Source: a virus | Virus record (IMG/VR): IMGVR_UViG_3300007504_000003 | Coordinates: 32,001-96,000 of that record | Strand: one strand, 5' to 3' | DNA length: 64,000 bases | Shown: one piece after another, positions 8,563 through 41,694 of the stretch | How positions within the stretch are numbered: position 1 is the stretch's first letter | Layout of the letters: each line of letters opens with the position of its first letter | Notes under the pieces: model-generated | The model's input: only the letters and a program-made list of their open reading frames with translations | Databases searched by the model: none | Told to the model about the DNA's origin: nothing | Program-made: the position numbers and the translations under genes

Positions 8563-8877
8563 GTGAGCACGATCCTCTCAGTTCATCGAGTTGTCCTCGC
8601 CCGCACCGTGGCTCGACGGTGGCTGGAGGCTCAGGCTCGCCCTGAGTACCGGGTGAAGGTCTTCTTCAATGGTGAGCGAGACGGGCGGGGTGTGGGGAAG
8701 CTCCTGCATCTTTACCGGGATGGGAAGACCAAGGTCGGCGGCGTTGAGCCCATCTTGGACCTCGGGATCCGAGAAGAGTTCGATCATCTCGTACTTTGGT
8801 CCGAGGACCAGGAAGCGATGGTTCGTCTCAGCGAGTGGTTTGAGAAGAAGGGCTACGAGACCACCGGAGTCTGGTAA
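8563..8877 (+). CDS. hypothetical protein with N-terminal tag TVARRWL
   Basis: ORF; tag at 8605-8625. Confidence 0.65.
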   Translation: MSTILSVHRVVLARTVARRWLEAQARPEYRVKVFFNGERDGRGVGKLLHLYRDGKTKVGGVEPILDLGIREEFDHLVLWSEDQEAMVRLSEWFEKKGYETTGVW

Positions 8878-9308
8878 TGGCCGGAACGCTCATTCTCAGC
8901 GAGTTCACGTTCCGCTCCGGGGCGAGTAGTGCCAGCTACTACTATTTCACCATCGTCTCAGACTCCTCGGGGAACCTCTCGGTCAGGAACCTGACTGCAC
9001 CCACAGGTCTGCTTCAGGATTCTCTGACTGAGCTACCGCAGTCGGTCACGGACGATATCAGCTCTGCCTACACCACGGTGGAGGATTTCTTGGCTTCAAC
9101 TAGTGCGATCAGTGGTGAGGTGACCTTCACCGCGGAGACTTCCAAGAGCGTGACCTTCACGACGGCTCTCAACTCCGCTACCTACTCGGTGTTCTTCGAC
9201 TCTGACGCTTTCGTTCCTTTCAAGGCTACTTCTAAGGCGACGACGGGCTTCACGATCGAGGCAGGCACGACGTTTACCGGCACCGTCCGTTACAACGTCT
9301 TCCTCTAA
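8877..9308 (+). CDS. virion structural-like beta protein
   Basis: Ser/Thr-rich; C-terminal domain paralogous to that of 9318..10511. Confidence 0.6.
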   Translation: MAGTLILSEFTFRSGASSASYYYFTIVSDSSGNLSVRNLTAPTGLLQDSLTELPQSVTDDISSAYTTVEDFLASTSAISGEVTFTAETSKSVTFTTALNSATYSVFFDSDAFVPFKATSKATTGFTIEAGTTFTGTVRYNVFL

Positions 9309-9317: not shown

Positions 9318-10511
9318 ATGCCCGACAACTTCCAGGTGGACCAGCTTCAGATTGAGCCCGGCAGCGGAGATACTCTGACGGTGAGTCGGGACGCGACCGC
9401 GGGGGCGATGAAGTTTATCGACGCGGTGGAGACTTCAGGGCTCTTGCTCTCTCAGCTCGCGGGTCTCCAAACGATCACTGGCATTCTGATGGTCGGCCGG
9501 GCAGGCTCGGGGGCTCAGTACACCACCATCCAGTCAGCGATCGACGCTGTCTCGGGAGCCACCGCGGCCTCCCCGACGTTGATCCTGATCGGTCCCGGCA
9601 CCTACACCGAGAACCTGACCATTGATGAGGACGGGGTTTGTCTGGTGGGTCTGGGTCGGGTTGTTCTCCAGCCCAGCACCGCAACCAGTCCGACGATCAC
9701 GATTCAGGCGGGGTCCGGAATCCCTCTCTTCACCCTCCTGCGGAACCTTCGGGTGGAGCACACGGGGGACGGGGAGGACTGCGTTTACATCGTGGGTGGG
9801 GCCAGTTCGACCGTCGCCAGCACGGGAGTCTACCTCCACGATTGCGATCTGATTGCCTCCGGGGTCGGGACCTACAACATCCGAGCCTCCGCGGTTAATC
9901 ACATTCGGGTGGTCGGCGGGTCCTGGGAAGGGTCCAGCTCGACAGCGGTCTGCTCGGTTGCTAACTGCGCTTCGTTTCACCTGGAGCGGGTGGCTCGGGT
10001 CATAGACCTCCAGCTCTCCTATGACACCGCGAATTCTCGACCCTCGGTCACGACTTCAGAGTACAAGGTGGTGGGTTGCTCTCAGATAGGAGCCTCGACC
10101 AATGACTTGGACGGGGCAGGGAGCCTCCTTTATGCCGGCTGCCCTTCCGTTGGTGCCATTACGATCGGCGGAGATCGGACCCTGACCCTGGTGGGGTCTC
10201 GGGTGGGGAATCTGGTTCTCAATGAGACGATTGCTTGTACTCGTATCGGAGGAGCCCGGGGGACGCTGACAGGGGATGGAACGATGACGGAGTCCGGGGT
10301 GATGGCTGTGGTGGCTTTTTCTTCGGAGACCTCCAAGGCGGTTCTCTTCGACGCTGACATGCCTGATACCAGCTACGCGGTCCATCTCGATTGGGAGGAT
10401 ACCAGCCTCACAGCAGCGGTGACCTCCCGGGCAACGACGGGGTTCACGATCTCGACAAGTGCTAGCTACACGGGCAACGTGTCCTACACAGTCACAAGGC
10501 AGATGACATGA
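9318..10511 (+). CDS. tail spike/fibre-like protein with parallel beta-helix
   Basis: YTTIQSAIDA...ILIGPGTYTENLTI pectin-lyase-like entry motif. Confidence 0.65.
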   Translation: MPDNFQVDQLQIEPGSGDTLTVSRDATAGAMKFIDAVETSGLLLSQLAGLQTITGILMVGRAGSGAQYTTIQSAIDAVSGATAASPTLILIGPGTYTENLTIDEDGVCLVGLGRVVLQPSTATSPTITIQAGSGIPLFTLLRNLRVEHTGDGEDCVYIVGGASSTVASTGVYLHDCDLIASGVGTYNIRASAVNHIRVVGGSWEGSSSTAVCSVANCASFHLERVARVIDLQLSYDTANSRPSVTTSEYKVVGCSQIGASTNDLDGAGSLLYAGCPSVGAITIGGDRTLTLVGSRVGNLVLNETIACTRIGGARGTLTGDGTMTESGVMAVVAFSSETSKAVLFDADMPDTSYAVHLDWEDTSLTAAVTSRATTGFTISTSASYTGNVSYTVTRQMT

Positions 10512-10636
10512 TGAGAGAGGCCCGGGTCGCGTCCCGTTGGCTTACAGCTTCCCTGACCTTTCAGGAGTTGGCGGCGGGGGTCATCGAGTTGACCCAACGG
10601 GGCCGTAAAATGAGACTACTCCAGCCCCGTCGTTGA
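10508..10636 (+). CDS. 42-aa micro-ORF carrying RVASRWL (absent from supplied track)
   Basis: MMREARVASRWLTASLTFQELAAGVIELTQRGRKMRLLQPRR; ATGA overlap with the upstream stop; fills the gap before thioredoxin. Confidence 0.55.
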   Translation: MMREARVASRWLTASLTFQELAAGVIELTQRGRKMRLLQPRR

Positions 10637-10649: not shown

Positions 10650-11036
10650 ATGGCCGAGGTTCCCTACACTAGTTTCGATGAGTTCACGGGGGACGTGTTG
10701 GACTCTGATGTACCTGTCATGGTCCAGTTCACGGCTTCCTGGTGCGGTCCCTGCAAGGCGATGGAGCCTTCACTGATCCAGATCCATGATGTTCTGGTGG
10801 CCTCAAAGACGGGTCGGGTGGTGAAGGTAGATGTTGAACAGGACATGGAGCTGGCTGAGCAGTTTGAGGTCCGGACGGTGCCTACATTCATCCTCTTCTG
10901 GGATGGCGATCCCGTTGATCGTTCTATCGGTGCCGTGGGGATGCAGGGCATCGTAAATCTCTTCACCCGGAATTCTTCCCATGCAGAAGCCCCTGAGTCC
11001 TCTTCAGAGACAGGTGATTCGTCTGGGGCAGGTTGA
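10650..11036 (+). CDS. thioredoxin
   Basis: WCGPC active site, KVDVE, VRTVPTFI. Confidence 0.92.
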   Translation: MAEVPYTSFDEFTGDVLDSDVPVMVQFTASWCGPCKAMEPSLIQIHDVLVASKTGRVVKVDVEQDMELAEQFEVRTVPTFILFWDGDPVDRSIGAVGMQGIVNLFTRNSSHAEAPESSSETGDSSGAG

Positions 11037-11259
11037 GCCTGAGCTGAGATCTGGACTTCTTCAGCTATTGAAAGAGGCTGGGTACAAGGGCAACCCGGAT
11101 GGGAAAGATATCTACCCGAATGAGATAGACCATGGTTACGACCAGCCCCTCGCTGGGGGGACGGACGTAATGAAGCGGCTTCAGGACCGCCTGCTCCACG
11201 AGCAGGGTCGTCCTCCTCGGGACAAGAACCCGGTGCTCAAGGGAGCCTCGAATGAATGA
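10981..11259 (+). CDS. small protein with IRL..PELR..LL tag
   Basis: LQRQVIRLGQVEPELRSGLLQLLKEAG. Confidence 0.6.
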   Translation: MQKPLSPLQRQVIRLGQVEPELRSGLLQLLKEAGYKGNPDGKDIYPNEIDHGYDQPLAGGTDVMKRLQDRLLHEQGRPPRDKNPVLKGASNE

Positions 11260-11896: not shown

Positions 11897-12115
11897 ATGT
11901 CCTCTCGACCTGACACGACCCTCTGGGATGTAGCCCAGCTCAACGCTGGGAAATCCGCAGACGCCCGGCCTTTCAGTGGTTCTCACAGCAACCGAAGGGT
12001 TGCTTCCGAGGTGGCTCTTCGTCGGAAGGCGATTCGGCTTGCTTCCGTGACGGAGAACCCGGAGCTGAAGACGGCTCTCCTGGGGGAGCTGAGGAAGGAT
12101 ATTCGTCGAGCATGA
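11897..12115 (+). CDS. small protein with IRLA..PEL..LL tag
   Basis: LRRKAIRLASVTENPELKTALLGELRK. Confidence 0.6.
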   Translation: MSSRPDTTLWDVAQLNAGKSADARPFSGSHSNRRVASEVALRRKAIRLASVTENPELKTALLGELRKDIRRA

Positions 12116-12401: not shown

Positions 12402-13022
12402 TTGACCCCCTCAGCTTCCCGAGTAGCTGACCGTTACTTGAAAGCGAAGGCCCGTTCCCGCACCGCGGGCGAGGTCATTTTCAAGAAGGACCGGAGCGGC
12501 GACCGCAACGAGTGGGCCTGGAATGATCACGCTCCCTCTGCTCGGGAGATGGACGAGGGGTTTGTGTTCGACCCCCGCCAGCTCAAGCCCCTCGCCCAGG
12601 TGCTTCGGTCTACCCTGGCTGGTTTGGGCCATGTCTCCAGTGCTCACCAGAATTTTCTCAAGGTCAAGAGCGCGAGGGTGAGCCCAGATGGGAACCTCGG
12701 AGGACGGGGTTACATCCAGAAGATCGCGGACATGCGGCGGGGGTTCATGAACGTCTGCGAGGCCCTGTCTGCGTTATCCGATACCCTCTATGATGAGATC
12801 AACGCCCCTCATTGGAACCCTGAGGCAGCCGTGGACAAGCGGGAGCGGGAAGAGGTTCAGGATATCGTGGACGACGCTGAAGAGATTCGTCGGGACCCGG
12901 AAGGTTGGGCGAAAGAGGAAGAGGCGGAGATGGACGCCGAGCATGACAAGATGGCTTCTTCTGAGCGGGTACAGATGAGGAATCGGGTCGCTCACCGTTC
13001 CTTGTCCCGGAGGATTGGCTGA
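12402..13022 (+). CDS. hypothetical protein with N-terminal RVADRYL tag
   Basis: GGAG RBS, TTG start; tag at 12420-12440. Confidence 0.65.
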   Translation: MTPSASRVADRYLKAKARSRTAGEVIFKKDRSGDRNEWAWNDHAPSAREMDEGFVFDPRQLKPLAQVLRSTLAGLGHVSSAHQNFLKVKSARVSPDGNLGGRGYIQKIADMRRGFMNVCEALSALSDTLYDEINAPHWNPEAAVDKREREEVQDIVDDAEEIRRDPEGWAKEEEAEMDAEHDKMASSERVQMRNRVAHRSLSRRIG

Positions 13023-15851: not shown

Positions 15852-16502
15852 ATGCCGAACCCTTCCCTGAACCAGATTCTTGCTAACCTGCCCGCAGGGA
15901 CTCAACGGGTGCAGGTGGTAGACGCCTCTGGGAAGACGAAGTGGAGGGCTCCAGATCAGGTCCGGAAGTCGGACGTGATTGCGATGAAAGGAGGAGCCCC
16001 CGTAGTCATGCGCGGTGCTCCTGGCCGCCCCGCTCGGGTGGAGTTGCCCCCCGCCTCGGACGAGGTCGGAGAGGTATGTCGGCAGAAGAAGGAGGCGATT
16101 CGGGATGACGATCTGCGGGGCAAATTGGCCCGGGACCCCAACCAGGATGTGCTCCCGGTAATCATGCAGGGGATCGCGGAAGAGGCCGCGAGTCTGAAGT
16201 TTGAGCGAGAGGAAGCAGAGCGGCAGGGGGAGCAGACCGCGATGATCTCTTCCCGGCGAGTCCGAGCCCTTACAGCTCTCGGGGATGCCTGGGTCAAGAG
16301 GATGGAGAGGACGGCGACAATCGATCTGGAGGGGGACCAGTTCAAGCTCCTCTTCCGATTCGTTTTGGAGACTTTCCGCGCGGTTTTGGAGGACTCCGGG
16401 GTTCGCCCCGAGCTGGTGGAGACCATCTTCACGAGGATGGGTGAGAAGCTCGACGACGCTTGGAAGGCCGAAGCCCGAGCTAAGATGCGAGGGAAGTCGT
16501 GA
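15852..16502 (+). CDS. probable terminase small subunit
   Basis: Directly upstream of and overlapping TerL; about 216 aa, helical. Confidence 0.45.
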   Translation: MPNPSLNQILANLPAGTQRVQVVDASGKTKWRAPDQVRKSDVIAMKGGAPVVMRGAPGRPARVELPPASDEVGEVCRQKKEAIRDDDLRGKLARDPNQDVLPVIMQGIAEEAASLKFEREEAERQGEQTAMISSRRVRALTALGDAWVKRMERTATIDLEGDQFKLLFRFVLETFRAVLEDSGVRPELVETIFTRMGEKLDDAWKAEARAKMRGKS

Positions 16503-29365: not shown

Positions 29366-30634
29366 ATGTCGCCTTACGCTCCAAGAATCGCGGACCTTTG
29401 GCTGTCCCGCTCTGCGGATTCGGCTGCCCACGTTCGTTCAATCGCGTTGATGCGGTTTCTCTCCCGGCTGGCTCTCCGGCTGGGGAGAGCCGTGGCTGAG
29501 AACGTCTACGTGGTGGGCGGGGCGGTTCGGGATTTCGTCTTGGACCGTCCGATCAAGGATATCGACGTGGTGATCGACTCCGTCTCTCTCGGGAGAGACA
29601 GCGAGTGGTTCGCCCGTCAGATTTCCGCAGCCGTCCCGGCTCGGACGTCGCTGGTGACCAACAACTATGGGGTCGCCATTCTCACCATTTCGGAGTCCTG
29701 GGTTCTGGAAGGTGTGGAGATGCAGGGCGAAGTGATCGAGATCGCCAATGCCCGGACGGAGTCCTATGGGGGTGCTTCAGGGAAGGGCTACAAGCCCTCG
29801 GAGGTCGCTCCGGCGAGGATTGAGGATGACGTGGCACGCAGGGAGTTGTCCTACAACACCTTGATGATCCGGCTCCTCCATCTGGCGGACGGGCCGGATA
29901 AGGCAGACATTCTGGACCTGACGGGCTGCGGCCTCAGTGACCTGGAAGCTGGGATTATGCGTTGCCCGGCGGATCCCAACATTGTGTTCTCCGACGACCC
30001 GAGCCGGATGATCAGGGTGATTAAGTTCGCTCTTCGTTACGGGCACCGTCTCACTGAGGACACTCGGGCGGCGATCCTCAACAACGCGGAGAAGATCAAG
30101 AACATCCCGGGCGGGCATCTCATCAACCTCCTGACGGGGATCATCCTCCGTGAGGCGACCTGGAAAGAAGCCCTTCAGTGGATGCAGGATCTGAACCTCC
30201 TGGCACCGATCAGGGAGATGGTGCTGTCGGACGAGCAGCTCAAGACCTCTCTCATCAACCACATCCGGGGTTACCGGTTGGAGATGCTGTTCAGCTTGAT
30301 GGATCTGGGATTGCCGGTGGGCTACCGCGTGCGTTTCCTCCCTCGGGCGGATCAGAGTCATCTACGCGACTCTATCGGTCACTGGCCGGCTGAGGAAGCG
30401 TGGGGGTTCGTGGAAGCCTTGCGGAACCCTGGCGTCATCATCCAGGACAAGAAGTTTTTCCCTGAACTGGCTCGGGAGCATGGGTTCCTCGGCCCTCAAA
30501 TCGCGGGGTTCAACCGCGAGGTGTACCTGCCCATAGCTCGGAGGATCCTGATGGGGGATCCCCACATTCGGTTGAGCCCGGCCCGCTTTCGACGAGAGAT
30601 CGCTGACCGAGTCAGGGCACGTCTTCGGCGGTAG
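29366..30634 (+). CDS. CCA-adding/poly(A) polymerase-family (class II) nucleotidyltransferase
   Basis: VGGAVRD, DIDVV, ARTESY, RRELSYN (D to E), DDPSRMIR; no HD domain seen. Confidence 0.9.
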   Translation: MSPYAPRIADLWLSRSADSAAHVRSIALMRFLSRLALRLGRAVAENVYVVGGAVRDFVLDRPIKDIDVVIDSVSLGRDSEWFARQISAAVPARTSLVTNNYGVAILTISESWVLEGVEMQGEVIEIANARTESYGGASGKGYKPSEVAPARIEDDVARRELSYNTLMIRLLHLADGPDKADILDLTGCGLSDLEAGIMRCPADPNIVFSDDPSRMIRVIKFALRYGHRLTEDTRAAILNNAEKIKNIPGGHLINLLTGIILREATWKEALQWMQDLNLLAPIREMVLSDEQLKTSLINHIRGYRLEMLFSLMDLGLPVGYRVRFLPRADQSHLRDSIGHWPAEEAWGFVEALRNPGVIIQDKKFFPELAREHGFLGPQIAGFNREVYLPIARRILMGDPHIRLSPARFRREIADRVRARLRR

Positions 30635-30643: not shown

Positions 30644-30657
30644 CTCAGTGGGGTGAT

Positions 30658-31782
30658 ATGAAGGATTACCCGCCCTCTCGTCTTGTAGCCTCTCGTTGGT
30701 TGGTTGCATCCAAGTCGAAGTACCGATCCGTTTTGCGGCGGGGTCGCTCTCGCGTGGAAGCCGCCTACCGGCAGGATGATTGGACTGCGGCTGCGGCTGC
30801 CTATGAGCAGGCGGCTTCGGCTCTCCGTCCCCTCGGGGGACTTCTGGATGGGGTTACCGTCGAGCGGCAGAGTGAGCGGAGGAAGCTGAAGAACGTCCGC
30901 CGGAACCTGTCTCTGATCAAGCGGTATACGGCTCCTGGCTTCCTCCGAGATACCGAGTATCAGACCGCCTATTGGGCTTGGAGTAGCTGGGAGACGCTAG
31001 AAGATGCCGTGAAGGCTGTTCTGAGAGTCTGGGAGCGAGTGACCGGGTACCAGAGCTTGACTCGCTCCTTCCAGCACGGCCCTTTCACGGTTGAGAATCA
31101 CTACGGCTACCGTGAGGAGGAATTGGCGGCACCCTTATCGCTCCTCTCAGGAGCGATGGATCAGATCCGCTCCCGGGGGTTTGAGGAGGTCTTGTACGGG
31201 GTCGTTCAAATAGTGAGCCCGAAGAGCGGGGGGTTCTGTGGGAGGTACTTCAAGAATGGGGACTTCCTTCAGATCAACGCGGATTGCCAGTACCGCTTAG
31301 GGGCTGTTCATACGGTGGTCCACGAGCTAGGTCACCGGTTCTGGTTCCAGAAGATGACGTCCGCACAGCAGAAGGCATATGACGACGCCTATTCGGGTAC
31401 AGCAGGCGTTGTGTTCTCTCTGGGGGACCGGGAGGACATGTGGCAGGCGTTCAAGGAAGCCGGGTACACCCTCCGAGGTGCTCATCGGCGGTTGAGGAAC
31501 CCCGCCTTGCGGGAGCATCTCTCGGATTATGTCCGGGAGAGGAGGAAGGGGTTGTTGATCGTCCCGGACCCGCGGACGGGGTTCATGGAGGCCCATGCTC
31601 AGAGAGCTTTCGTGGTCCCTTCTGTGAGAAACTTCTTCCTGGGCCGCCCCGTCTCCGTGAGTGATTACGCTGAAACAGGCGGGGTGACGGAGGATTTCGC
31701 TGAGGTCTTCGCGTTCTTCTGCACCGGGAAGAGGGTTGACGCAAGGGCTCTGGAACGCTTCCGGGACGCGACCGGCCGCTAG
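30658..31782 (+). CDS. zincin-like metallopeptidase-domain protein with tag
   Basis: VVHELGHRF ... SDYAETGGVTEDFAEVF; LVASRWL at 30682. Confidence 0.75.
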   Translation: MKDYPPSRLVASRWLVASKSKYRSVLRRGRSRVEAAYRQDDWTAAAAAYEQAASALRPLGGLLDGVTVERQSERRKLKNVRRNLSLIKRYTAPGFLRDTEYQTAYWAWSSWETLEDAVKAVLRVWERVTGYQSLTRSFQHGPFTVENHYGYREEELAAPLSLLSGAMDQIRSRGFEEVLYGVVQIVSPKSGGFCGRYFKNGDFLQINADCQYRLGAVHTVVHELGHRFWFQKMTSAQQKAYDDAYSGTAGVVFSLGDREDMWQAFKEAGYTLRGAHRRLRNPALREHLSDYVRERRKGLLIVPDPRTGFMEAHAQRAFVVPSVRNFFLGRPVSVSDYAETGGVTEDFAEVFAFFCTGKRVDARALERFRDATGR

Positions 31783-31791
31783 TTCCTCTAT
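31779..31791 (+). promoter_or_regulatory. putative late promoter motif TA-N6-YTAT
   Basis: CTAGTTCCTCTAT upstream of 31806. Confidence 0.5.
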
Positions 31792-31805
31792 GTGGGGAGG
31801 CTAGC

Positions 31806-33305
31806 ATGGAAACCCTCGCCCACGCTGAAGCCTCTGACGGCTCGCTCCCTATCATGGAGCCCCTCCACAATGTGCGGGAGGTGGCTAAGCAACTCATCCT
31901 GTTGGAAGACCACCTCTTTCATCCTGAGCGGCACTGCGAGGATTGCATCACCAAGCATCTCCTGACCGCTGAGGCGTTCGCAGAGGAGGCCCGTTCTCTC
32001 GACGTGGCGGGAGAGTTTTCCGAGCTGCTGAACCCTCTCCCAGGGGTCTTGAGGCGGCTGTTCCGAATGTTTCAGGAGGAGAAGCCGGTGCAGGAAATCG
32101 CTCAAGCAGCTCGCAAGTTGAGGAAGCGATTGATGCCGGAGACCCTCAAGGTGCGGGTGGCCTCCCGTTGGTTGTCGGCGGAGCGAGGTCGTCAGGTTTC
32201 GGACCTGCCTAGGTTTTTGATGGTGGGTAACCGCATTCTGAACAACTTGAACGCTTTGAAGCGGGCTGAGGCTGAGGGCCGCCATGACCGGTCAGTAGTC
32301 TGGGCTCTCAACACGGATTGGTCTAGCATTGTCTCAGCGGGTCGGCGGTGGTCAGAGGAGGTGATTGAGACTCGGGCTACTCCCAGGGGTAAGGCGAAGA
32401 AAATTGAGCTGGCGGTTCGGGCTTTCCAGGTCAGCCGTACTCGCGACTCAACGAAGTGGCTCAAGAAGAACCGTCGCCACATTGAGTTGCTGATTGAAGC
32501 GGAGAGGTGGCCCCTTCGCTCTGAAGCTTCCGACGATTTGGCGAGGCAGTTCCAGCAGGGTTCGTTTACCGTTCACAACACCATCCACGCTGAAGGAAAC
32601 AAGCTTCAGGCTGTCCGGGATATGATCTCTGCTGCGTCGAGGGCCCTCCCCAGGACGGGGCTCGCAGGTGCTCAGAGCATGGCTTACGGCGATCTGTTGA
32701 TTGTGGGTCAGATTGGCCGGGCGTCCTGGGCTGCGTGGTACACCCCGTCGAAGGACAATATCGCGATTCGCCCCTTCATTCGGGGGATTTCTGCGGCTGA
32801 TGCTGCTCGGCATCTTGTCCATGAGATTGGACACCGGTATTGGCATAAAGTCATCGCCCGAGATCGGGATCTGGTCCGGGCGTGGCACGCTTACCACCGG
32901 AGGCTGGGGAGCCAGCCGGTAGACCCTGTGGCTTTTCCGGGGGTTGGGGAACAGCTCCCTCACCCGATCCACATGAAGATTCTTCCTCCAGGGAGAAAGC
33001 GTAGGAAGAGGGTGCTTATTCAACCCACGGTCAAGGCTCGGGGCTCTGAGTGGGTTGAGTTTGAGGAGGCTCCCGGGGTTCGCTATAGCGTGATTTCAGT
33101 TCAGCGGATTCTGGAGAACACTGGTCGGACAGGTCGTTTCCCCTCTCCGTATGCGGCCACGGATCCGCAGGAGCATTTCTGCGAGGCGTTTTCCTTCAAG
33201 GCGTTTGGAGAACTTTCCCCTGAAGGGGTGGAAGCGTTTGACAGGATCTTTTTGGGCCGCACGGCGGCGGATCGGGTAGCCGATCGCTGGAGTGAGCAAA
33301 GCTAG
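31806..33305 (+). CDS. Cys/His N-domain + zincin-like metallopeptidase, two tags
   Basis: LEDHL..PERHCEDCITKH; LVHEIGHRY...SPYAATDPQEHFCEAF; RVASRWL at 32154, RVADRW at 33273. Confidence 0.75.
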   Translation: METLAHAEASDGSLPIMEPLHNVREVAKQLILLEDHLFHPERHCEDCITKHLLTAEAFAEEARSLDVAGEFSELLNPLPGVLRRLFRMFQEEKPVQEIAQAARKLRKRLMPETLKVRVASRWLSAERGRQVSDLPRFLMVGNRILNNLNALKRAEAEGRHDRSVVWALNTDWSSIVSAGRRWSEEVIETRATPRGKAKKIELAVRAFQVSRTRDSTKWLKKNRRHIELLIEAERWPLRSEASDDLARQFQQGSFTVHNTIHAEGNKLQAVRDMISAASRALPRTGLAGAQSMAYGDLLIVGQIGRASWAAWYTPSKDNIAIRPFIRGISAADAARHLVHEIGHRYWHKVIARDRDLVRAWHAYHRRLGSQPVDPVAFPGVGEQLPHPIHMKILPPGRKRRKRVLIQPTVKARGSEWVEFEEAPGVRYSVISVQRILENTGRTGRFPSPYAATDPQEHFCEAFSFKAFGELSPEGVEAFDRIFLGRTAADRVADRWSEQS

Positions 33306-33308
33306 CTG

Positions 33309-33321
33309 GTATCCCTTCTAT
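33309..33321 (+). promoter_or_regulatory. putative late promoter motif TA-N6-YTAT
   Basis: GTATCCCTTCTAT upstream of 33357. Confidence 0.5.
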
Positions 33322-33356
33322 GGACTCCGGGGGTCGAGTCCTCTCGGAGTTGTAGG

Positions 33357-34019
33357 ATGCCCAAGGTCAAAGACCCGCTTGTCCGTCAGGCGGCGGATCG
33401 TCTTCGGGAAAGCACAAAGAAGGTGATCCGGGCTTTCGTGGAGCAAAAGCCTGGAGATAGTCGTGCTCTGAGGTCAGATGGACGGTCGTTGTGGAAGCGA
33501 TCTTTTGGGGAGAGCAAGTTCGCAGTCTGGAGAGCGGGTCGAATCCTCATCCTGAACGACGAGTCCTCTAAATTTGACGACCGGGTGATCCGGTACATCA
33601 TCCGGCTTGCAGGAAAGCCAACCGTAGCTTTCGAGTACGACCGCGGGGGTGCCCACCCCAATATGAAGCTGACGTTTGAGATAGTTTGGGATGACGTAAT
33701 CGGCCGAGAGGAGTACAAGGCTCGTCTCGGTGCCGTCATGACCGATGGGGGTGAGCGAGGGCTCGTGGGTTGGGTGGACTACTCCAAATATCAGGGGGAG
33801 TACACGATCGACCACGTTCATGTGGTGCCTGAGTATCGCCGTAGCGGGGTCGCCACTGCCTTGTATAAGGAGCTGTTCCGTCGGGAAGGGATCACTGTCC
33901 GGGACCTGGGCCCGAGCGCGAGGACCGACCTGGGGCAGAAGTTTCGGGAGAATGCCCGGCTCGCAGCAGCACGCCGGGTCGCTGCCCGTTACCTAGGGGG
34001 CAGTCGTGAGTCGGGATAA
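33357..34019 (+). CDS. GNAT acetyltransferase-domain protein with C-terminal tag
   Basis: IDHVHVVPEYRRSGVATALY motif A; RVAARYL at 33975. Confidence 0.8.
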   Translation: MPKVKDPLVRQAADRLRESTKKVIRAFVEQKPGDSRALRSDGRSLWKRSFGESKFAVWRAGRILILNDESSKFDDRVIRYIIRLAGKPTVAFEYDRGGAHPNMKLTFEIVWDDVIGREEYKARLGAVMTDGGERGLVGWVDYSKYQGEYTIDHVHVVPEYRRSGVATALYKELFRREGITVRDLGPSARTDLGQKFRENARLAAARRVAARYLGGSRESG

Positions 34020-36717
34020 AGCGGCCATTCCTTCCGTTGAGAAGGTGGTGCGTTGTTATCGTGAGACTCAGGCGAAGACGTTCAAGATTGAGGTGGGTGA
34101 CCCGATCTGGTACGGGAAGTACAAGAATAAGAAGGGGATCGTCAAGGGCTTCAAGGGGAACGACAAGGGAGATACGATCGTTGTGATCGAGCCTGACCCG
34201 AAGGGGCGGAAGCAGAACAAGGAGCTGAAGCTCTTCAAGATTCGGCCTCGGAAGGCCCATGTCTCCCCTGAGGTTTACGTTGAGGGGGACCCCGAGGATT
34301 ACCTCCGGTTCTTCCTCCGTGATGGGAGGATGGGAGAGAATTTGGCCCGGGTCTGGATTGTCCAGATGGATCCGGAGGGCTACTGGTACCTGGATAGCGC
34401 GAAGGCGTATATCCGGGGTCAGGGCTTCGGGGTTGAAGCCTACATGGCCGCGATCAAGTATGCGACGGAGCATGGGGCCGGGCTCGTCTCGGACGATGAG
34501 GCGTCAGCCGCCGCGAAGCGGGCTCGGCAGGATCTCCGGAAGCGAGGGGTTCAGTTTACTCCGGGCTACGTTTTCAAGACGCACCGGTCCTCCCATATGT
34601 TCGGGACCGCTCTTCCGGTGGACGCCTGGGATGTTCGGTCGGCGGTTCTGATGAAGTCTCGGCGTGGTCCTGCGTACCCGATCCGCCAAGCTGGCTCCGC
34701 CCCGGCTTGGGGTGCCGACAGTGTGGACGCTTTCCAGTACCTCATTCGGGGGGAGTACGACGAGGGGTTGGAGTGGGTCGAGAAGTGGGGTCTGAAGTCC
34801 TCTCAGTGGGAGGAAATCGAGGGTGGGGATGGACCCCAGGTGGCTTTGGTGAATGACGCCTTCAACGACCTGGATGACTTCATCAGTCGTCACAACGACA
34901 GGCTCCACTACCGTCACAAGGACCAGGAAGCTCGGGATTGGGCTCCGCTTGGGCGACATTTCAAGGAAGCAGGTTCGGGTCTACCTGTGGGCTGGACTCT
35001 TCGCCACAAGTGGTATGGCCGGACGCTCATGGTGGAAATCTGGGATGACCAGAAGGATGAGCAGGTTGTCCTGATGGCGACCCGAGAGTCTGTTTCTTCC
35101 ATGTCGTCAGGATGCCAGGAGGATATCCGTGCTCTCGCGGCTCAGACAGGAGCCTCGGAGGCTGACGTGCTCGTTGTACGGTCGGCCCATGCCGGGGACC
35201 ACCAGGGTCGGGGGTTTGGCCGGATGGTGTATGAGCGGGCTCTGGGAGAGGCTGCGGCAGCTAATTTGATCCTGGTCCCTGATGACTGCGAGGAAGCCCG
35301 GCGGACGAGCCCCTCAGCGGCTCGGGTCTGGGATTCTCTTCGTCGCAGGTATCCGAATGACGGGGACGCTTTCTGGGGCCGGAAGGCCAGTGAGGACGTG
35401 ATGGGTCGCACAGCGTCGTATGGGGAGCAGTTGTTTATGTTGCGGCCTGGGCAGGCGTGGTCACCCAGGTTGATGAACAACGTCACCGTGTCCACCTCCC
35501 GGTCGGATATGAACAAGCCCCGCGGCGGGTTCTGGACGTCCACGTATGCGGGGGGTCGGTCGGACTGGCTGGACTGGTGTGATCGAGAGGGCTTCCGTGG
35601 CGGCAACCAGGGGGTTCTATTTGTCCCTGGGGGCAGCGTCTTCCATATCCGCGATCTGAAGAGCTATCTCCAGCTCGCTGCGGCTCATGGTCGGGTTCAT
35701 CGCGACGCCATGTTCGGGGACACGGAGAACCTGATCGATTGGAATTCTGTCGCTCTCTACTACGACGGGGTTCACTTCACTCGGGAAGCCCTACGGGACC
35801 GTGCCTTATCCGAGTACCTCTATGGGATAGATGCGGAGTCAACGATCTGGTTCAACCCTCGGGTTCTCCAGTACAAGGGGCTCGTAGATATCCAGTCGCG
35901 GTGTCGGGTGAGAGCCGCCCGGGTTGCTCAGCGGTGGCTGGAGGGGGCTCGTCCAATTCCCTTGAACCCGGCGATGGTGGATAAGGTCGTTGCTCGGGTG
36001 GTGCGGAAGATCATTTCGGGGCTCTCCGTGTTCCGGCGAGATCGAGACGATTCTCTCTATTACGTCCGGGGCTTTGACCCGAGGAAGTGGGGCGGTGAGG
36101 TCGCGGTCTACGAGACGACCGATGTTCGGGGTCAGCGGATTAATGTCCCTGTCCGATTGAAGACAGAGCAAGAGCTATCGAATCACGTTCGGCGGTACAT
36201 CGTCGGTGGAGCGGTCAGCGCCCGGTATTCCCACGGGGAAAAGTTTGGTCGTAAGTGGCAGATGGTGATCAAGCTGAATTCAGCGAGGACTCCGAATGAG
36301 ATTATGGGGGACTTGAATCGGGTTACCCAGGAGGTCCGCTCCGTGGTCATCCACGAGGCGACTCATTTGCGAGACCTCCTCCGTCTTCAGTCCCCGGAAG
36401 ATCGGGAGACGAGTCAGCGTGACCCCGACGCCTATTACAACCTCCCCCATGAAGTTCGGGCGTTCATGCAGCAGGTCGTCGCGGAGGTGCGGGAGGGTTT
36501 GGAGGACGCCGCCAAGTCAGGGGCTCGCTGGTACTGGCGAGCCCGGAAGATCGACAAGAGGGTCTCCAGCGGCTTTGTTATGCGGGCCTTGGAGCAGGCT
36601 CCGACATGGAACCGGGTGAGGCCGTTCATGACTGAGGAAAACCGCCGGCTGATCCTCAAGGCGGTCGCGACGTCTCTGACGGATTGGGATCCTTTCTCCA
36701 TCGGGGTCCAGGTATGA
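34006..36717 (+). CDS. polyvalent protein: SH3-like + GNAT + GNAT + ART-like + HExxH domain
   Basis: IRGQGFGVEAY, HQGRGFGRMVY, PRGGFWTS...DAESTIWFNP, VIHEATH...YYNLPHEVRA. Confidence 0.72.
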   Translation: MSRDKAAIPSVEKVVRCYRETQAKTFKIEVGDPIWYGKYKNKKGIVKGFKGNDKGDTIVVIEPDPKGRKQNKELKLFKIRPRKAHVSPEVYVEGDPEDYLRFFLRDGRMGENLARVWIVQMDPEGYWYLDSAKAYIRGQGFGVEAYMAAIKYATEHGAGLVSDDEASAAAKRARQDLRKRGVQFTPGYVFKTHRSSHMFGTALPVDAWDVRSAVLMKSRRGPAYPIRQAGSAPAWGADSVDAFQYLIRGEYDEGLEWVEKWGLKSSQWEEIEGGDGPQVALVNDAFNDLDDFISRHNDRLHYRHKDQEARDWAPLGRHFKEAGSGLPVGWTLRHKWYGRTLMVEIWDDQKDEQVVLMATRESVSSMSSGCQEDIRALAAQTGASEADVLVVRSAHAGDHQGRGFGRMVYERALGEAAAANLILVPDDCEEARRTSPSAARVWDSLRRRYPNDGDAFWGRKASEDVMGRTASYGEQLFMLRPGQAWSPRLMNNVTVSTSRSDMNKPRGGFWTSTYAGGRSDWLDWCDREGFRGGNQGVLFVPGGSVFHIRDLKSYLQLAAAHGRVHRDAMFGDTENLIDWNSVALYYDGVHFTREALRDRALSEYLYGIDAESTIWFNPRVLQYKGLVDIQSRCRVRAARVAQRWLEGARPIPLNPAMVDKVVARVVRKIISGLSVFRRDRDDSLYYVRGFDPRKWGGEVAVYETTDVRGQRINVPVRLKTEQELSNHVRRYIVGGAVSARYSHGEKFGRKWQMVIKLNSARTPNEIMGDLNRVTQEVRSVVIHEATHLRDLLRLQSPEDRETSQRDPDAYYNLPHEVRAFMQQVVAEVREGLEDAAKSGARWYWRARKIDKRVSSGFVMRALEQAPTWNRVRPFMTEENRRLILKAVATSLTDWDPFSIGVQV

Positions 36718-37664
36718 GCAGTATCACCGCTGGTACCTGGGGCTACGAGCCCTGGGCGGGCGACGCTCAGGAGGACAACCTGAGCGCGGTCCTGAAGACC
36801 TTGAAGAAGGGGCCGGCATACAAGAAGCTGCGGGATCTCCGGCCAAAGGCGAAGGATCTGAAGGACGAGTCCCCGGTTCGCCAGATCCTCCTCCCCTGGG
36901 ATTGGGTGGGTGAGGTGTACCTCGTCTCAGACGCCCTCCAGGGTGTCCCTGAGAGCCTTGTGAAGCACGCCCTGGAGTTCGTAGAGGGGATCGAGGAACA
37001 CCCCGCCTACGAGGAATTCCTGGCTTCTTGGAAGGAGCCTGAGGAGTTCCCAGCTATGCGTGAGCGGGTGGAGGCGGACCTCCGTCAGGCGTTGGATTTC
37101 AGCCGTGATGGGAGGGTCAGGCTGACTATCCCTCCTATGGGTCGGCTGGCGAAATACCGGCAACCACCGCTAGGCCCCCGCCAGGATCTTGTGGACAAGA
37201 TTCGTTACCGAGTGCGGTCCAACAGTGATGGGATTGTCATCGCTCTCTATTCTGGGAGGCGTTCAGCGGGAGCGATGGTCGCGCACTGGAAGAGGTTCCC
37301 CGGGGACCTTTGCGTCTCGGATATCGGGATGCTCTCGATCACGGTGACTCCCACGCCCCAGCGGATCTTGCAGGTGTATACGTCAGGCTTGGAAGAGGGG
37401 TTCCGAGGGCTGGGATATGGTCGGGCGATGTATCAAGCGTTGATGGCGGAGGGCTGGAAGCAGGAGGGCCGCCCGTTTTTCCTGACGCCGATGTGGTGTA
37501 GCTATGGATCAGGCACGTCGGCTATGGCGATGCGAGTCTGGGATTCGCTGGCTCGACAGTATCCTTCCAGCGGCAAGGTGATTGCGGTGACGGGTCCCGT
37601 GAAGCCGGGTGTCCGGACTTCTGCGGGCGTCGTAGCGAATCGCTGGTTGGGGCTTCATGAGTGA
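36714..37664 (+). CDS. unknown N-domain + GNAT domain, C-terminal tag
   Basis: FRGLGYGRAMYQ; VVANRWL at 37629; ATGA overlap at the start. Confidence 0.72.
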   Translation: MSSITAGTWGYEPWAGDAQEDNLSAVLKTLKKGPAYKKLRDLRPKAKDLKDESPVRQILLPWDWVGEVYLVSDALQGVPESLVKHALEFVEGIEEHPAYEEFLASWKEPEEFPAMRERVEADLRQALDFSRDGRVRLTIPPMGRLAKYRQPPLGPRQDLVDKIRYRVRSNSDGIVIALYSGRRSAGAMVAHWKRFPGDLCVSDIGMLSITVTPTPQRILQVYTSGLEEGFRGLGYGRAMYQALMAEGWKQEGRPFFLTPMWCSYGSGTSAMAMRVWDSLARQYPSSGKVIAVTGPVKPGVRTSAGVVANRWLGLHE

Positions 37665-40600
37665 GACCTGTCGGTCTGCGGGTGGCAGCAAGGTGCTCTT
37701 CTACATAGGGCATCGGCCTGCTCGACCTGTCCCGAAGCGGACCTCCTGGGTAGACCGGGGACAAGAGGGGCCTGATTGGGTCCGACCCTGGTTGGATTCC
37801 CCGGTTCAGGCTGGCGTCTTTCTTACGACCAACCCGTTTAATGTAGCGACAGAGCACGGCATCATGGGCCACGTCTATGCCTATCAGGTCCCTCGGTGGG
37901 TCCTGAAGGAAGCCGGTGGTCTCCAGCGGTATGACCACGCGACCGAGGTGCTGATTCCGGAGCCCTTGTGGGAGCACGTCAAGTTTCTGGGGAAGTCTCT
38001 GGACAAGGGGGCTTTCAGGCAGCGGGTTTTAGAAGGCCAGAATGAGCGAGCCTTCGCGCCTCATAATCTGGCTGTAGGGCTCGGTGAGGCAAGAGAGGTT
38101 TACATGAGGCCGAAACCCCAGAGGGTTGCTTTCCGGTACCTTCAGTCTTCTGATATCGCGGAGCGGGTCGCCGCTCGTTACCAGAAGAAGAAGGAAGTTC
38201 CGAAGGCGAAGGGCGAGGGGACCACCACGGTGTACGAGTACAGCGAGGGTCAGGTTCAGCACCGGAATCGGGAGAAGGCGAAGCGGATTGAGAAGCTCCG
38301 CACGGGAATCGGGAAGCTGCGAGCCAAGGTCAAGGGAGACCTCACCTCGTCAGACGATAAGACCCGTTTGACAGCCCTGGCTGTGGCTTTGATGGACGAG
38401 ACCTATGAGCGGGTTGGGAATGACCAATCGGCTAAGGAGGGCCATTTCGGGGTCACTGGCTGGCAAGCCAAGCATGTGAAGTTCAGCGGGGGGAAGGCGA
38501 CCATTTCCTACGTTGGAAAATCCGGTGTCCGTCAGAAGAAAGAGGTCACCACTGCGAAGGTGGTCTCGGCACTCAAGCGGGCGATGAAAGGCAAGTCCGG
38601 GACCACGCAGGTGCTCTGCGAGGGGGATGACTGTCGGGTTCTGGCTCAGGACGTCAACGGCTACTTGAAGCCTTTCAACATCACGGCGAAGGATATCCGT
38701 GGGCTCCACGCCAATGAGGAAGTCAAGACCCGACTGAAGGAAGTCCGCAGGAAGGGCGGCAAGCTCCCGACCGATCCGAAGAAGAAGGCTGAGAAGCTCA
38801 AGGCGGAGTTCAAGGAAGCCTTGGAAGCCGCCGCTTCGGCTGTCGGTCACCAGCCCGGCACCCTCAAGAGTCAGTACCTCGTACCTGGAGTAGAGCAGAC
38901 CTTCCTGAAGGATGGCTCTGTTTCCGTGAAGCACGCCTCCAGCCGGGTCGCGATTATCAATCTCAACCACGCCACGGATGGGGAGAAGGGAGACCACTCC
39001 CTACGTGGAGTGGCTGGGTTGATCTCCAGTCTCACCTACTATGAGCGGGCTCTGGTTCAGGATATGCTGGTTCACGATCAGCCAATCCGGAAGGGGAAGG
39101 AGGGGTATTCTCTTCGCGGCCACCCCGTCATGTCTGATGCTGTAGGTGAGCTGGTCGCCGCGGGCTATCTGGAGGGGGAGGGGGAGGTCCGGCTCTCGGG
39201 GTTGTTCCTGGCGAAAAAGAAGCTCTACAAGAAAGAAGCTTCCCTGGACCGGGCGGCGGAGGCTTTTCTGTCTTCTGCCCCGGAGAAGTGGGGTCGGGCA
39301 GATCTCCTGGCTTTCACTCGGGTCGATCCCTGGTTCCAGGCGATGACTCTCCCCTCACGAGTCGCAGCGGCGGGTGAGTTGTTTGGTCGGGTTCTCCGAG
39401 CGGGTGTCATGGATCGCTCACATCCCCAGGCGGTAGCCTGGGTGGAGTCGTTTTTTCAGCGGCATCCAGCTCTGCGTCGCTACCAGGGGATTCCGGTTCT
39501 CCACGTCTCCTCGCCGGGGTCGGGTTCGCATCCCGAGGCTCGTCAGACCTATCGGGGGATTGAGCTGTATCCGAAGTTCTGGGGTCACTCCACGGAAATC
39601 CAGGACTTCATCTTCGCGCATGAGATCGGTCACGCGGTTCGATCGGAGTGGGGCTTGGCTTTTGGCGTGGCTGCTGCTGCTCTTGGGATTGACCCGTGGG
39701 ATACACCGAATCTCCCCTTCGGTCAGTTCAATCAGGACGAGGCCTTCGCGGATTCCTTCGCCAGTTATTTCACGGATGGGGATGTAGGTCGGAGGTATCC
39801 GGCGTGGAGTCGGCTCGTAGAGGAGGGGCTCCGGATTCGGGTAGGGAAGAAATCCCCCGCGGACAAAGAGGATGCCGAGGTAGAGCGGCTGGTGAGGCCC
39901 TCGCCTAAGAAGAAGCCGCCGCGGAAGGACAAGAGACGAGAGCAAATTCGTGAGGAGGATCGGGACACGGACGGAGACCGGGACACCAAGCGAGACAAGG
40001 ATATGAGCCTCAACTACAAGGATAGCGTCAGCCGGGTGGCGGCTCGTTATCTGGAGGCCCTCCGCGTCAAGACGGTTCGGGTCTTGAATACGGATACCGG
40101 GAAGATGGAGAACATCTCTCCGGAGCGGTTCCAGAGGAACCCGGGGAAGTACAAGCTGTGGCGGGACATGTCCCCCGAGGAAAAGGACAAGAATAGGCTC
40201 CGTAAGAAGCCTCCGGTTGAGGAGACTCCCCAGGAGGAAGAGGCGGAAGAAGCTCCTCAGGAAGAGGAGGGAGGAGAGGAGGGGGAAGAGGAGGAAGAAG
40301 AGGCCCCCCAGGAAGAAGAGGCCCCCCAGGAGGAAGAGGTTTCCCAGGAGGAAGAGGTTTCCCAGGAAGAAGAATCTACGAGTGACCCGGACACGGAGGA
40401 CTACGAGGATGTGTCTTCCCTGCTGGAGGAGATCCCGGAGTCTCTGACTCCGGAGCAGAAGGCAATTCGCCGGAGCGAGTTGGTTGAGGCTGCCTTGTCC
40501 GTGATGACGAACAAGTTGGCGGCTGCTGAGAAGGAAGTGGCTGAACTGGAGGAGTCCCTGGATTCCCTTTTGGCTGACCCTGCCACGACCAGTAAGCAAA

Positions 40601-41694
40601 AGGCGTCTGCGAAGCAGAAGCTCCAGGCAGCGGTGAAGGGCCGCAACGAGATGAAGAAGGAGGTGTCCCGCCTCCAGAGCCGTCGGGACACCCTGGAGTC
40701 CGAGCGGCAGCAGAGAGAAGACGCTGCGGCTGCAAAGAAGATGAAGTCTGAGCGAGCCAAGGCTCTACAGGACTTGGTCGGTCAGGTCGGCGGCATGGTG
40801 GATCGTCTGGATGATCCTGGCGGGGATTTCACTGACCCGCTGGAGGTCGGTCAGATGTTCTACAAGGAAATCTCTGGTCTGACCCCAGCAGAATCTCAGA
40901 GCCTCGTCGATCAGATCCAGGACCGAGTCCGGGAGCTTCCGGGAGAGGAGTCCGTTCTCCGGGCAGGGTATGTGGCTGCCCTCGACGCGGTGGAGGTTGC
41001 GTCTATCGTTCGTGGTCAAGAAGTCGCCATTGAGGGGCGTTCCCCGCTGATGCAGATGGCTCACCGTCTTCTGAAGACGGTCGCGAAAATCCCTGGAAAG
41101 GAGGTTGACCTTCTTGGAGTGGGTCGCGGGGTCGGGTCAGGCTCCTGGGTTGGGATTTCGGACCAGATTAAGAACCTCTCCCATGAGGATCTGGTCCGGG
41201 TGGTAGGGGCTGACTCGGACCAACACCCCTTTTCCGGCATGGCGAAGTTCTTGCTGGACTCTGAGGCTCCTGATGAGCGGAAGGCGATGGCTCGCCAATG
41301 GATGCAAGATGCCGCCTTGGACGCTTTTGGTTTGCTCTCCCCGGTGGCAGAGGAGATCGTTCAGGACAGTCGGGATCTGGGTTCCGGAGCGGGTGAGGAA
41401 TTGGTGATAGAGGTGCAGGAGGCATACGCCGGCACCTGGGCTGCCGTGGAGGGTGGGGGCGACAGCGACGACCAAGAAGAGGCCGATCTTTACTCTTTTG
41501 AGGACCCTCTTCAGGAAACCCTGGGGAGCCCGGAGAAGCAGGAGGTCTCGCGCTTGGATAGCCTTCAACGTGTTCTGGACATGCTCCAGAAGCGGTTTGA
41601 GGGGGTTCGTACACGGACTATGAAAGTAATCGAGGCCCTCCTCATTAAGGGGGATCCGGACGTGGGTCCGGTCTCGTTCAACCGAGCAACCTAA
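37657..41694 (+). CDS. polyvalent protein: ART-like + topoisomerase IB + HExxH domain + acidic linker + coiled coil
   Basis: TopIB residues RVGN, GKSG, KDIR, GH...QY; FAHEIGH...DEAFADSF; three RVAxRY tags. Confidence 0.82.
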   Translation: MSETCRSAGGSKVLFYIGHRPARPVPKRTSWVDRGQEGPDWVRPWLDSPVQAGVFLTTNPFNVATEHGIMGHVYAYQVPRWVLKEAGGLQRYDHATEVLIPEPLWEHVKFLGKSLDKGAFRQRVLEGQNERAFAPHNLAVGLGEAREVYMRPKPQRVAFRYLQSSDIAERVAARYQKKKEVPKAKGEGTTTVYEYSEGQVQHRNREKAKRIEKLRTGIGKLRAKVKGDLTSSDDKTRLTALAVALMDETYERVGNDQSAKEGHFGVTGWQAKHVKFSGGKATISYVGKSGVRQKKEVTTAKVVSALKRAMKGKSGTTQVLCEGDDCRVLAQDVNGYLKPFNITAKDIRGLHANEEVKTRLKEVRRKGGKLPTDPKKKAEKLKAEFKEALEAAASAVGHQPGTLKSQYLVPGVEQTFLKDGSVSVKHASSRVAIINLNHATDGEKGDHSLRGVAGLISSLTYYERALVQDMLVHDQPIRKGKEGYSLRGHPVMSDAVGELVAAGYLEGEGEVRLSGLFLAKKKLYKKEASLDRAAEAFLSSAPEKWGRADLLAFTRVDPWFQAMTLPSRVAAAGELFGRVLRAGVMDRSHPQAVAWVESFFQRHPALRRYQGIPVLHVSSPGSGSHPEARQTYRGIELYPKFWGHSTEIQDFIFAHEIGHAVRSEWGLAFGVAAAALGIDPWDTPNLPFGQFNQDEAFADSFASYFTDGDVGRRYPAWSRLVEEGLRIRVGKKSPADKEDAEVERLVRPSPKKKPPRKDKRREQIREEDRDTDGDRDTKRDKDMSLNYKDSVSRVAARYLEALRVKTVRVLNTDTGKMENISPERFQRNPGKYKLWRDMSPEEKDKNRLRKKPPVEETPQEEEAEEAPQEEEGGEEGEEEEEEAPQEEEAPQEEEVSQEEEVSQEEESTSDPDTEDYEDVSSLLEEIPESLTPEQKAIRRSELVEAALSVMTNKLAAAEKEVAELEESLDSLLADPATTSKQKASAKQKLQAAVKGRNEMKKEVSRLQSRRDTLESERQQREDAAAAKKMKSERAKALQDLVGQVGGMVDRLDDPGGDFTDPLEVGQMFYKEISGLTPAESQSLVDQIQDRVRELPGEESVLRAGYVAALDAVEVASIVRGQEVAIEGRSPLMQMAHRLLKTVAKIPGKEVDLLGVGRGVGSGSWVGISDQIKNLSHEDLVRVVGADSDQHPFSGMAKFLLDSEAPDERKAMARQWMQDAALDAFGLLSPVAEEIVQDSRDLGSGAGEELVIEVQEAYAGTWAAVEGGGDSDDQEEADLYSFEDPLQETLGSPEKQEVSRLDSLQRVLDMLQKRFEGVRTRTMKVIEALLIKGDPDVGPVSFNRAT
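40303..40374 (+). repeat. four in-frame 18-nt tandem repeats (A/V-P/S-QEEE)
   Basis: gccccccaggaagaagag / gccccccaggaggaagag / gtttcccaggaggaagag / gtttcccaggaagaagaa. Confidence 0.9.

Follow-up and report, generated by a model that had tools for sequence, protein, structure and literature searches.

The internal proteins IPI-III and Alt of phage T4 carry a capsid targeting sequence (CTS), a short peptide common to otherwise unrelated host-modifying or counter-defence enzymes, whose presumed role is to direct these to the prohead so that they are delivered with the DNA; its position is always N-terminal, and gp21 cleaves it off at L/I-x-E. The Dar proteins of phage P1 (DarB, DdrB) and the ejection proteins of P22 are loaded into heads via specific regions and in dependence on head-assembly proteins, and we know of no common linear motif for them. 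The scaffolds of herpesviruses (UL26/UL26.5) and of lambda (C/Nu3) carry the protease into the procapsid and possess a C-terminal capsid-binding tail that the maturation protease releases (A|S M-site). Encapsulin cargo-loading peptides and the encapsulation peptides of bacterial microcompartments (BMCs) are short terminal peptides, found at either end of unrelated enzymes, that dock their carriers on a shell or scaffold. For the polyvalent proteins of phages, whose genes adjoin those for portal and terminase, packaging is predicted in passages of the paper that treats them (Iyer, Burroughs, Anand, de Souza and Aravind 2017; PMC5512222). Here we describe a short peptide, RVAxR[WY]L (below called the tag), that recurs in proteins encoded by a window of 64,000 bases, positions 32001-96000 of the 126,159-bp IMG/VR record IMGVR_UViG_3300007504_000003, which derives from an uncultured huge phage related to Bacillus phage G. 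We give an even chance to the reading, made from sequence, that the tag is a docking signal for enzymes carried as head cargo.

A sequence-only reading of the window had listed 13 copies of the tag, and a six-frame scan recovers every one of them, on the plus strand, in frame and distributed over 10 open reading frames (ORFs). Two further copies lie beyond the window in the same record, one in a C39-like peptidase (residue 259 of 335) and one in a 357-aa protein (residue 349). The copies in the window are the following:

8605..8625, plus strand: TVARRWL, residues 15-21 of the 104-aa ORF 8563-8877, N-terminal; the ortholog in relative G002 has VARRWV
10523..10543, plus strand: RVASRWL, residues 6-12 of the 42-aa ORF 10508-10636, N-terminal
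12420..12440, plus strand: RVADRYL, residues 7-13 of the 206-aa ORF 12402-13022, N-terminal; the ortholog in phage LR745208 has RVAGRML
29384..29404, plus strand: RIADLWL, residues 7-13 of the CCA/poly(A)-type nucleotidyltransferase 29366-30634
30682..30702, plus strand: LVASRWL, residues 9-15 of the 374-aa peptidase-like ORF 30658-31782
32154..32174, plus strand: RVASRWL, residues 117-123 of ORF 31806-33305, at the joint of an N-module and an HExxH (HEIGH) region
33273..33293, plus strand: RVADRWS, residues 490-496 of 499 in ORF 31806-33305, C-terminal
33975..33995, plus strand: RVAARYL, residues 207-213 of the 220-aa GNAT acetyltransferase 33357-34019, C-terminal
35920..35940, plus strand: RVAQRWL, residues 639-645 of the 903-aa ORF 34006-36717, right behind a phrog_8582 domain (501-617); the ortholog at locus L070 has RVASRWLEA
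37629..37649, plus strand: VVANRWL, residues 316-322 of the 326-aa ORF 36684-37664, C-terminal
38122..38184, plus strand: RVAFRYL and RVAARYQ in tandem, residues 156-176 of the 1345-aa ORF 37657-41694, just upstream of a topoisomerase IB core (201-405)
40033..40053, plus strand: RVAARYL, residues 793-799 of the same 1345-aa ORF

The copy at 10523 is overlooked by a 60-aa ORF list, since its ORF has only 42 codons for amino acids. A position weight matrix scan gave 15 sites against 0.1 expected, VAxR[YW] was observed 13 times against 0.85 in a shuffled proteome, and RVAxR[YW]L was observed 8 times against none in 300 shuffled proteomes, so the motif is not as frequent in shuffled proteomes, the outcome that the sequence-only reading had named as fatal to its proposal. 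Codons differ between the copies, as that reading had also stated: synonymous sites vary, and the mean pairwise identity of the 21-mers is 0.61. It is therefore clear that the tag is conserved as a peptide sequence and does not represent a DNA repeat, and the codon divergence likewise rules out a recombination junction as its origin.

The wider consensus is A-x-R-V-A-x-R-[WY]-L-x-A-S, with R, V, A, R, W/Y and L as the invariant tag residues and a variable residue after R-V-A (D and S four times each, A three times, and L, R, Q, N and F once each). V, A, W/Y and L share one face of a two-turn helix with the two Arg alongside, which is a groove-docking shape, and the tag is basic, often with runs of Lys/Arg behind it.

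Tags are found at protein ends and at joints between modules, in agreement with the earlier description. Five of the 15 are N-terminal, four lie within 20 residues of the C-terminus and six are internal; altogether nine lie no more than 20 residues from a terminus (p = 1.6e-6), and none falls inside a Pfam domain span. The carriers include the nucleotidyltransferase, the topoisomerase IB, GNATs and peptidases, and in relatives a 2H phosphoesterase and a zeta-toxin-like kinase. They had been called unrelated, which is correct for most of them, the exceptions being two pairs that share one domain each (the ORFs starting at 30658 and 31806, and those starting at 34006 and 36684). The zeta-toxin-like kinase, a 610-aa protein (L014:15331-17163, in relative G001) whose tag begins at residue 503, extends the tagged set to a kinase of toxin type. 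No tag is present in the clamp loader, the Toprim protein, the PD-(D/E)XK nuclease or the major capsid protein (MCP), bearing out the statement that replication genes and MCP lack it, nor was any found in TerL, the portal or the protease.

Ten of the 15 copies fall in the interval from portal to protease, which holds 14% of the coding residues (p = 4.6e-6). The gene order here is TerL, portal, cargo block, scaffold-like gene, 171-aa ORF, protease, acidic protein, decoration-like protein and MCP, and the features concerned are:

162-7374: clamp loader, Toprim protein and PD-(D/E)XK nuclease, tagless, separated from TerL by small ORFs
16499-19828: TerL with an intein (Intein_splicing and LAGLIDADG matches); intein-free orthologs have 636-772 aa
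20419-23787, plus strand: portal with an intein, tagless, at the boundary of the cargo block
25603-29346, plus strand: polyvalent-type 1247-aa protein, untagged, first gene of the cargo block after the portal, with a weak LPD1 match and a 2H phosphoesterase
29366-41694, plus strand: seven co-oriented, closely packed ORFs of the cargo block
41854..42363, plus strand: scaffold-like 169-aa protein with a conserved N-domain (1-108), an acidic middle, two K-E-A-S sites and the C-terminal tip S-H-G-Y-N-L-F-A
42373..42888, plus strand: conserved 171-aa protein with, in the model, a KOW/Tudor-like barrel, a disordered linker and a CPxC...C..C zinc ribbon; 18 homologs
42888-46949, plus strand: prohead protease homolog with two Hint/intein inserts, tagless
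46957..48276, plus strand: very acidic protein with a translated length of 439 aa, three [KR]-x-A-S sites and four repeats of the DPDEALLQQMLAEE type
49087-50016, plus strand: MCP (HK97-type), tagless

Scaffolding proteins have as their signature a terminal peptide that is conserved and preceded by a candidate protease site, a gene next to those for protease and MCP, and N-terminal passengers. The 41854-42363 protein shows a conserved C-terminal peptide after a candidate protease site, the protease/MCP neighbourhood and an extended low-complexity middle, and from this we infer a scaffold-like head-assembly module and a candidate scaffold. No annotation was obtained for it from Pfam, PHROGs or the ESM Atlas (Atlas pLDDT, the predicted local distance difference test score, 0.54). 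An exhaustive HMMER search (E <= 0.001) returned 278 cluster representatives. The tip, [HF]-G-[FY]-x-L and typically K-K-A-S-H-G-[FY]-N-L-F, ends 74 of the 129 short members and most of the long ones, and there is exactly one tip-bearing protein per genome. The family would seem well suited as a marker of this huge-phage group.

The tag carriers are recurrently fused to this module. Among the best 150 family members, 21 have lengths of 600-2211 aa and bear the module close to their C-terminus; six of the long forms were scanned against Pfam, and four of these carry Topo IB, GNAT or 2H domains, the module copies themselves matching no Pfam or PHROG family in the scanned proteins. Tags were counted 13 times in the long forms against 0.59 expected, and once in the short forms against 0.53. 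In relatives G002 and G003 the module forms the C-terminal portion of a 2233-aa and a 2108-aa protein, respectively, which also contain the topoisomerase IB module, the N-module of the 34006 ORF and several tags. From the fusion of carrier enzymes behind a scaffold-like module we infer, by analogy with scaffolds that bring passengers into procapsids, that the topoisomerase, GNAT and 2H enzymes may enter the prohead as head cargo. The tip family and its enzyme fusions are new here. The likeness to the herpesvirus and lambda scaffolds, which is seen in the C-terminal tip after K-K-A-S and in the N-terminal passenger fusions of relatives, concerns the scaffold-like module and not the tag, and cleavage and capsid binding would be predictions from its sequence.

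The docking that we favour would proceed as follows. The tag would be a short basic amphipathic helix, a portable docking motif that marks accessory-enzyme modules, whether separate or fused. Tagged genes would be expressed late, together with the head genes, and the exposed helix would bind a single common partner in the assembling prohead, so that the modules are loaded, or held after processing, and then delivered with the DNA. As the reader of the tag we would prefer the conserved N-domain of the scaffold-like 41854-42363 protein, then the acidic EALLxxMLAEE repeats of the 46957-48276 protein, then the KOW/zinc-ribbon protein 42373-42888, and finally the protease, the portal or the MCP.

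The second of these candidates, the acidic protein, is probably the main scaffold. Its relatives have D+E contents of 23-27% (three examined), and the repeats number four in the relative on contig FLOH01000042, one in LR745208 and one or two degenerate copies in G003. A longer minus-strand ORF at 46954-48360 is spurious, the plus-strand gene 46957-48276 being the one supported by homology. The third candidate contains in its linker R-E-A-S followed by a conserved tag-like helix, R-V-A-x-A-[FWY] (RVAKAF in the window), and could be the reader or a further client of the partner of the tag. Foldseek searches with its model gave weak KOW/Tudor matches (E ~0.01), and the tag-like helix was not docked on the barrel in the model. 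Neither protein received an annotation from Pfam, PHROGs or the ESM Atlas.

The two scaffold-like proteins share the motif [KR]-x-A-S, found five times against 0.6 expected (z = 6.3), which is likely the motif of the protease here; it also occurs in the linker of the 42373 protein and in the C-terminal region of the protease, and it precedes the tip as K-K-A-S-H-G-F-N-L-F across the family of 278 representatives. R-V-A conforms to [KR]-x-A, four of the 15 tags read [RL]VAS, and tags are situated at module joints, all of which would suit a prohead-protease recognition or cleavage site ('load and cut') by which tags split polyproteins into modules. We nevertheless regard such a cleavage role as improbable. 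The residue after R-V-A is variable, and the invariant R, W/Y and L downstream are needless for an A|S-type site; nine tags lie 6-20 residues from a terminus, where a cut would free a mere stub; and the cargo interval shows no enrichment of [KR]-x-A-S (7 against 4.8), which there lies away from the tags except in the RVAS copies.

Relatives were fetched via the tagged proteins, and tags were counted with the regular expression [RKN][VI]Ax[RK][YWFH]. Gene calls were simple ORF calls, and the counts in fragmentary records are lower bounds. The results were:

G001, 208 kb: at least 8 observed, 1.4 expected
G002, 63 kb: at least 7 observed, 0.23 expected
G003, 36 kb: at least 4 observed, 0.17 expected
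LR745208, complete, 485 kb: 14 observed, 1.9 expected
Tunturi_5, cultured, whole, 309 kb: 2 observed, 1.6 expected

In the LR745208 tags F, H or Y mostly occupies the aromatic position. The head region of the 436-kb contig FLOH01000042 is laid out as in the window, with five tags on three cargo proteins. The cultured relatives gave no tag signal, neither in the whole Tunturi_5 genome nor in the 40-kb head region of phage G, and because the latter lacks the tag we regard it as apparently confined to a subgroup of the uncultured huge phages related to phage G. Tracing the tag needs scans at the protein level, exact DNA patterns being poor: 43 loci matched RVAxRWLE in an exact scan of IMG/VR, almost all by chance in short or off-frame ORFs and only L070 as a true relative, and degenerate DNA patterns on the whole records of LR745208 and Tunturi_5 gave counts not above controls. 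A megablast search of the cargo block against the phage collection returned no matches.

The portability of the tag is best followed in the nucleotidyltransferase 29366-30634, which has 446 close homologs, many on contigs of 100-436 kb. In the best 120 of these, tag matches number 24 against 6.6 expected. Many homologs have the tag just upstream of the conserved first core helix (H..S-[VI]-A-L-M-K-F-L-S), three (P0068, P0098, P0111) have it at the joint of a fused 2H domain and the nucleotidyltransferase, and three (P0067, P0085, P0089) at the extreme C-terminus; in 13 of the best 120 the core helix starts within the first 12 residues, and the tag may be absent in the family. The sequences thus indicate a tag that is portable within one enzyme family, occurring at the N-terminus, at a joint, at the C-terminus or not at all, and together with the N-terminal, C-terminal and internal copies in the record this upholds the earlier claim of a position-independent, protein-level tag on diverse enzymes. 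An AlphaFold2 model of the nucleotidyltransferase (59 sequences) had a mean pLDDT of 94, with the core above 95, and since residues 1-20, which include the tag, form a helical overhang of low confidence (pLDDT 51-67), the tag appears in the model as an add-on beyond the fold.

Similar displacements are found among the other carriers. The internal tag at residue 793 of the topoisomerase protein, represented in the long fusions by NYKR[VI]AxR[WY], corresponds to the C-terminus of a 508-aa ortholog in LR745208, and the second tandem copy of the same ORF (RVAARYQ) is kept in G001, G002, LR745208 and FLOH01000042. The N-module of ORF 31806-33305 is in LR745208 a separate 134-aa ORF with a degenerate tag at its end, and a G003 protein with a C-terminal tag is related over ~130 residues to an untagged G000 protein. 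Extensive shuffling, splitting and fusing of modules among relatives, with tags at the joints, is what would be expected if the tag were a functionless relic, either a leftover linker at old fusion joints or a stretch of microhomology for module shuffling. We consider such a relic highly improbable, because the fifteen near-perfect copies have diverged codons and a nucleotide identity of 0.61 that is too low for recombination sites, and because the tag is kept in orthologs at 25-60% identity, at true termini and on a 42-aa ORF.

The 903-aa ORF starting at 34006 gives an example of a lost copy. Its N-terminus (34006-34250) is a small module with G-D-P-I-x-Y-G-K-Y-K-N-K-K-G, before which G001, G002 and G003 have a clear tag; in the window this tag has decayed to K-V-V-R-C-Y. 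The GNAT ORF upstream, in another frame and with an overlap of 14 nucleotides, has an intact tag at its end.

Several observations weigh against head cargo as the role of the tagged enzymes. In the window three tagged genes precede the terminase gene, two copies are 50-58 kb away from the cargo block on its upstream side, one of the largest proteins of the block (25603-29346) has no tag, and the scaffold assignment of the 41854 and 46957 proteins rests on position, composition and a conserved tip. The tagged genes of the complete LR745208 genome are dispersed over all 485 kb, and clustering beside the head genes is therefore no general property; the enrichment near the head module that the sequence-only reading had proposed to look for is present in this record and not in LR745208. 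Finally, the giant fusions with the scaffold module still keep up to five tags, and the tag is therefore not merely a substitute for fusion to that module.

Both the dispersal and the retention of tags in the fusions would be accommodated if the tag docked enzymes on a hub other than the capsid, be it a protein of the host, the DNA during injection or replication, or a phage scaffold in the cytoplasm that brings enzymes of RNA repair and DNA modification together. Several carriers are of RNA-repair type (nucleotidyltransferase, 2H phosphoesterase) and could act as a complex, and the basic character of the tag and the Lys/Arg runs behind it suit contact with nucleic acid. We hold a non-capsid hub to be rather unlikely: two thirds of the tags of this genome lie in a co-oriented late head operon, the carriers are recurrently fused to a module of head-assembly type, the replication proteins are tagless, and no hub candidate was found.

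When docking in the prohead is compared with the known systems, the T4 CTS is similar in that a short peptide is shared by unrelated proteins, among them enzymes comparable to the tag carriers. The expectation that the tag behaves as a T4-style removable N-terminal leader was not borne out. The tag is unrelated in sequence, is not confined to N-termini and is followed by neither L/I-x-E nor any other common cut site, and the analogy would be one of function only since the defining features of the CTS, N-terminal position and the L/I-x-E cut, are not found. The P1 Dar and P22 proteins resemble the favoured reading in that large anti-defence enzymes are loaded into heads and head-assembly proteins are required.

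Encapsulin shells share the HK97 fold with the MCP of this phage, and the BMC encapsulation peptides are amphipathic helices. R-V-A-x-R-[WY]-L is not the loading-peptide consensus, the shell here is a phage MCP with portal and terminase, and the tag differs further in its internal copies and in belonging to a DNA-packaging virus with a protease and a scaffold. A tag that works at either end or between modules hints at a shared logic among HK97-fold shells.

The cargo block also resembles the loci of polyvalent proteins, which are multi-enzyme polypeptides with 2H phosphoesterases and peptidases, in a portal/terminase context and with extensive module shuffling (PMC5512222, in the passages searched). 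Disparate domains within one polypeptide are found in the 25603-29346 protein (LPD1 and 2H, the LPD1 match being weak with 23.9 bits against a curated cut-off of 27) and in the 37657-41694 protein (Topo IB and further regions), and in relatives in the proteins of 2108-2233 aa and in database fusions with Topo IB, GNAT or 2H; the gene order supplies the portal, terminase and head context. Two differences are that many modules are here separate ORFs, each with its own tag, and that a recurrent short inter-module or terminal peptide is not mentioned in the searched passages of PMC5512222.

A bolder version of the docking reading, which we put forward tentatively and think rather doubtful, is that the tag is one letter of an address code in a large group of uncultured huge phages, in which a head-assembly protein that binds the helix loads any bearer of it. 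The most likely reader would then be the N-domain of the K-K-A-S-H-G-F-N-L-F family, with the acidic repeats of the main scaffold as the alternative. If this were true, sequence alone would suffice to list the arsenal of injected effectors, and foreign proteins could be loaded into phage heads by means of the tag. It is obscure when and where the hundreds of accessory genes of huge phages act, and a label readable from sequence would pick out first-strike enzymes, with RNA repair enzymes, a topoisomerase, acetyltransferases and peptidases as the candidates for entry with the DNA. A label for virion delivery would also explain the location of accessory genes in a late operon, the enzyme fusions to the scaffold-like module with its conserved tail provide a second, independent handle on the question of delivery, and if the reader were found, the tag-reader pair could be a simple system for loading proteins into capsids.

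The record has a G+C content of ~60% and no tRNAs, and because its completeness is 28% by CheckV it is a fragment of a huge phage of roughly 0.4-0.5 Mb. Its MCP shares 76% identity with the MCP of LR745208, an uncultured phage of 485 kb, 44% with that of Tunturiibacter phage Tunturi_5 and 40% with that of Bacillus phage G. A signal for import into a phage nucleus was set aside as an explanation of the tag, the MCP relating the phage to phage G rather than to the phiKZ-like phages, which form a nucleus. The true start of the MCP is probably ~18 codons past the first ATG (49087-49140), as orthologs have 291 aa and align from residue 19, and its short length suggests an MCP without a long N-terminal propeptide.

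Inteins interrupt three essential head genes, those for TerL, the portal and the prohead protease (two inteins). Portal orthologs (564-584 aa) align on both sides of an insert of ~520 aa that bears a LAGLIDADG match, and intein-free protease orthologs have 474-480 aa. The protease could be assigned to no family, Pfam, PHROGs and the ESM Atlas giving no annotation for an intein-free ortholog; gp331 of Tunturi_5 is annotated as a head maturation protease. Directly after the MCP gene, 50182-52083 encodes a LAGLIDADG homing endonuclease with a helix-turn-helix (HTH), fused to or followed by a DNA methyltransferase fragment. A match to A-I-A-R-R-Y in this stretch was rejected as a tag, for it sits within the HTH.

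Immediately 3' of the 42-aa tagged ORF, and still ahead of the terminase gene, is a gene for thioredoxin (10650-11036). A second leader that several proteins share, ~30 aa long, L-R-x-x-[AV]-I-x-[LV]-[AV] ... P-L-[RK]-x-x-L-L, is found in 11897-12115, 55108-55947 and 63214-63657, and in the same record at the window-equivalent positions 65198-65626 and 90271-90993; it is N-terminal in four proteins and internal in 11897-12115, and 10981-11259 fits the second half of the pattern only. The first half (R-R-A-I-R-L-A) can be aligned loosely to R-V-A-x-R-W-L, and V-E-A-S-S comes after one of the copies. This leader may represent a propeptide that is cleaved off, or else a cousin of the tag that has diverged from it.

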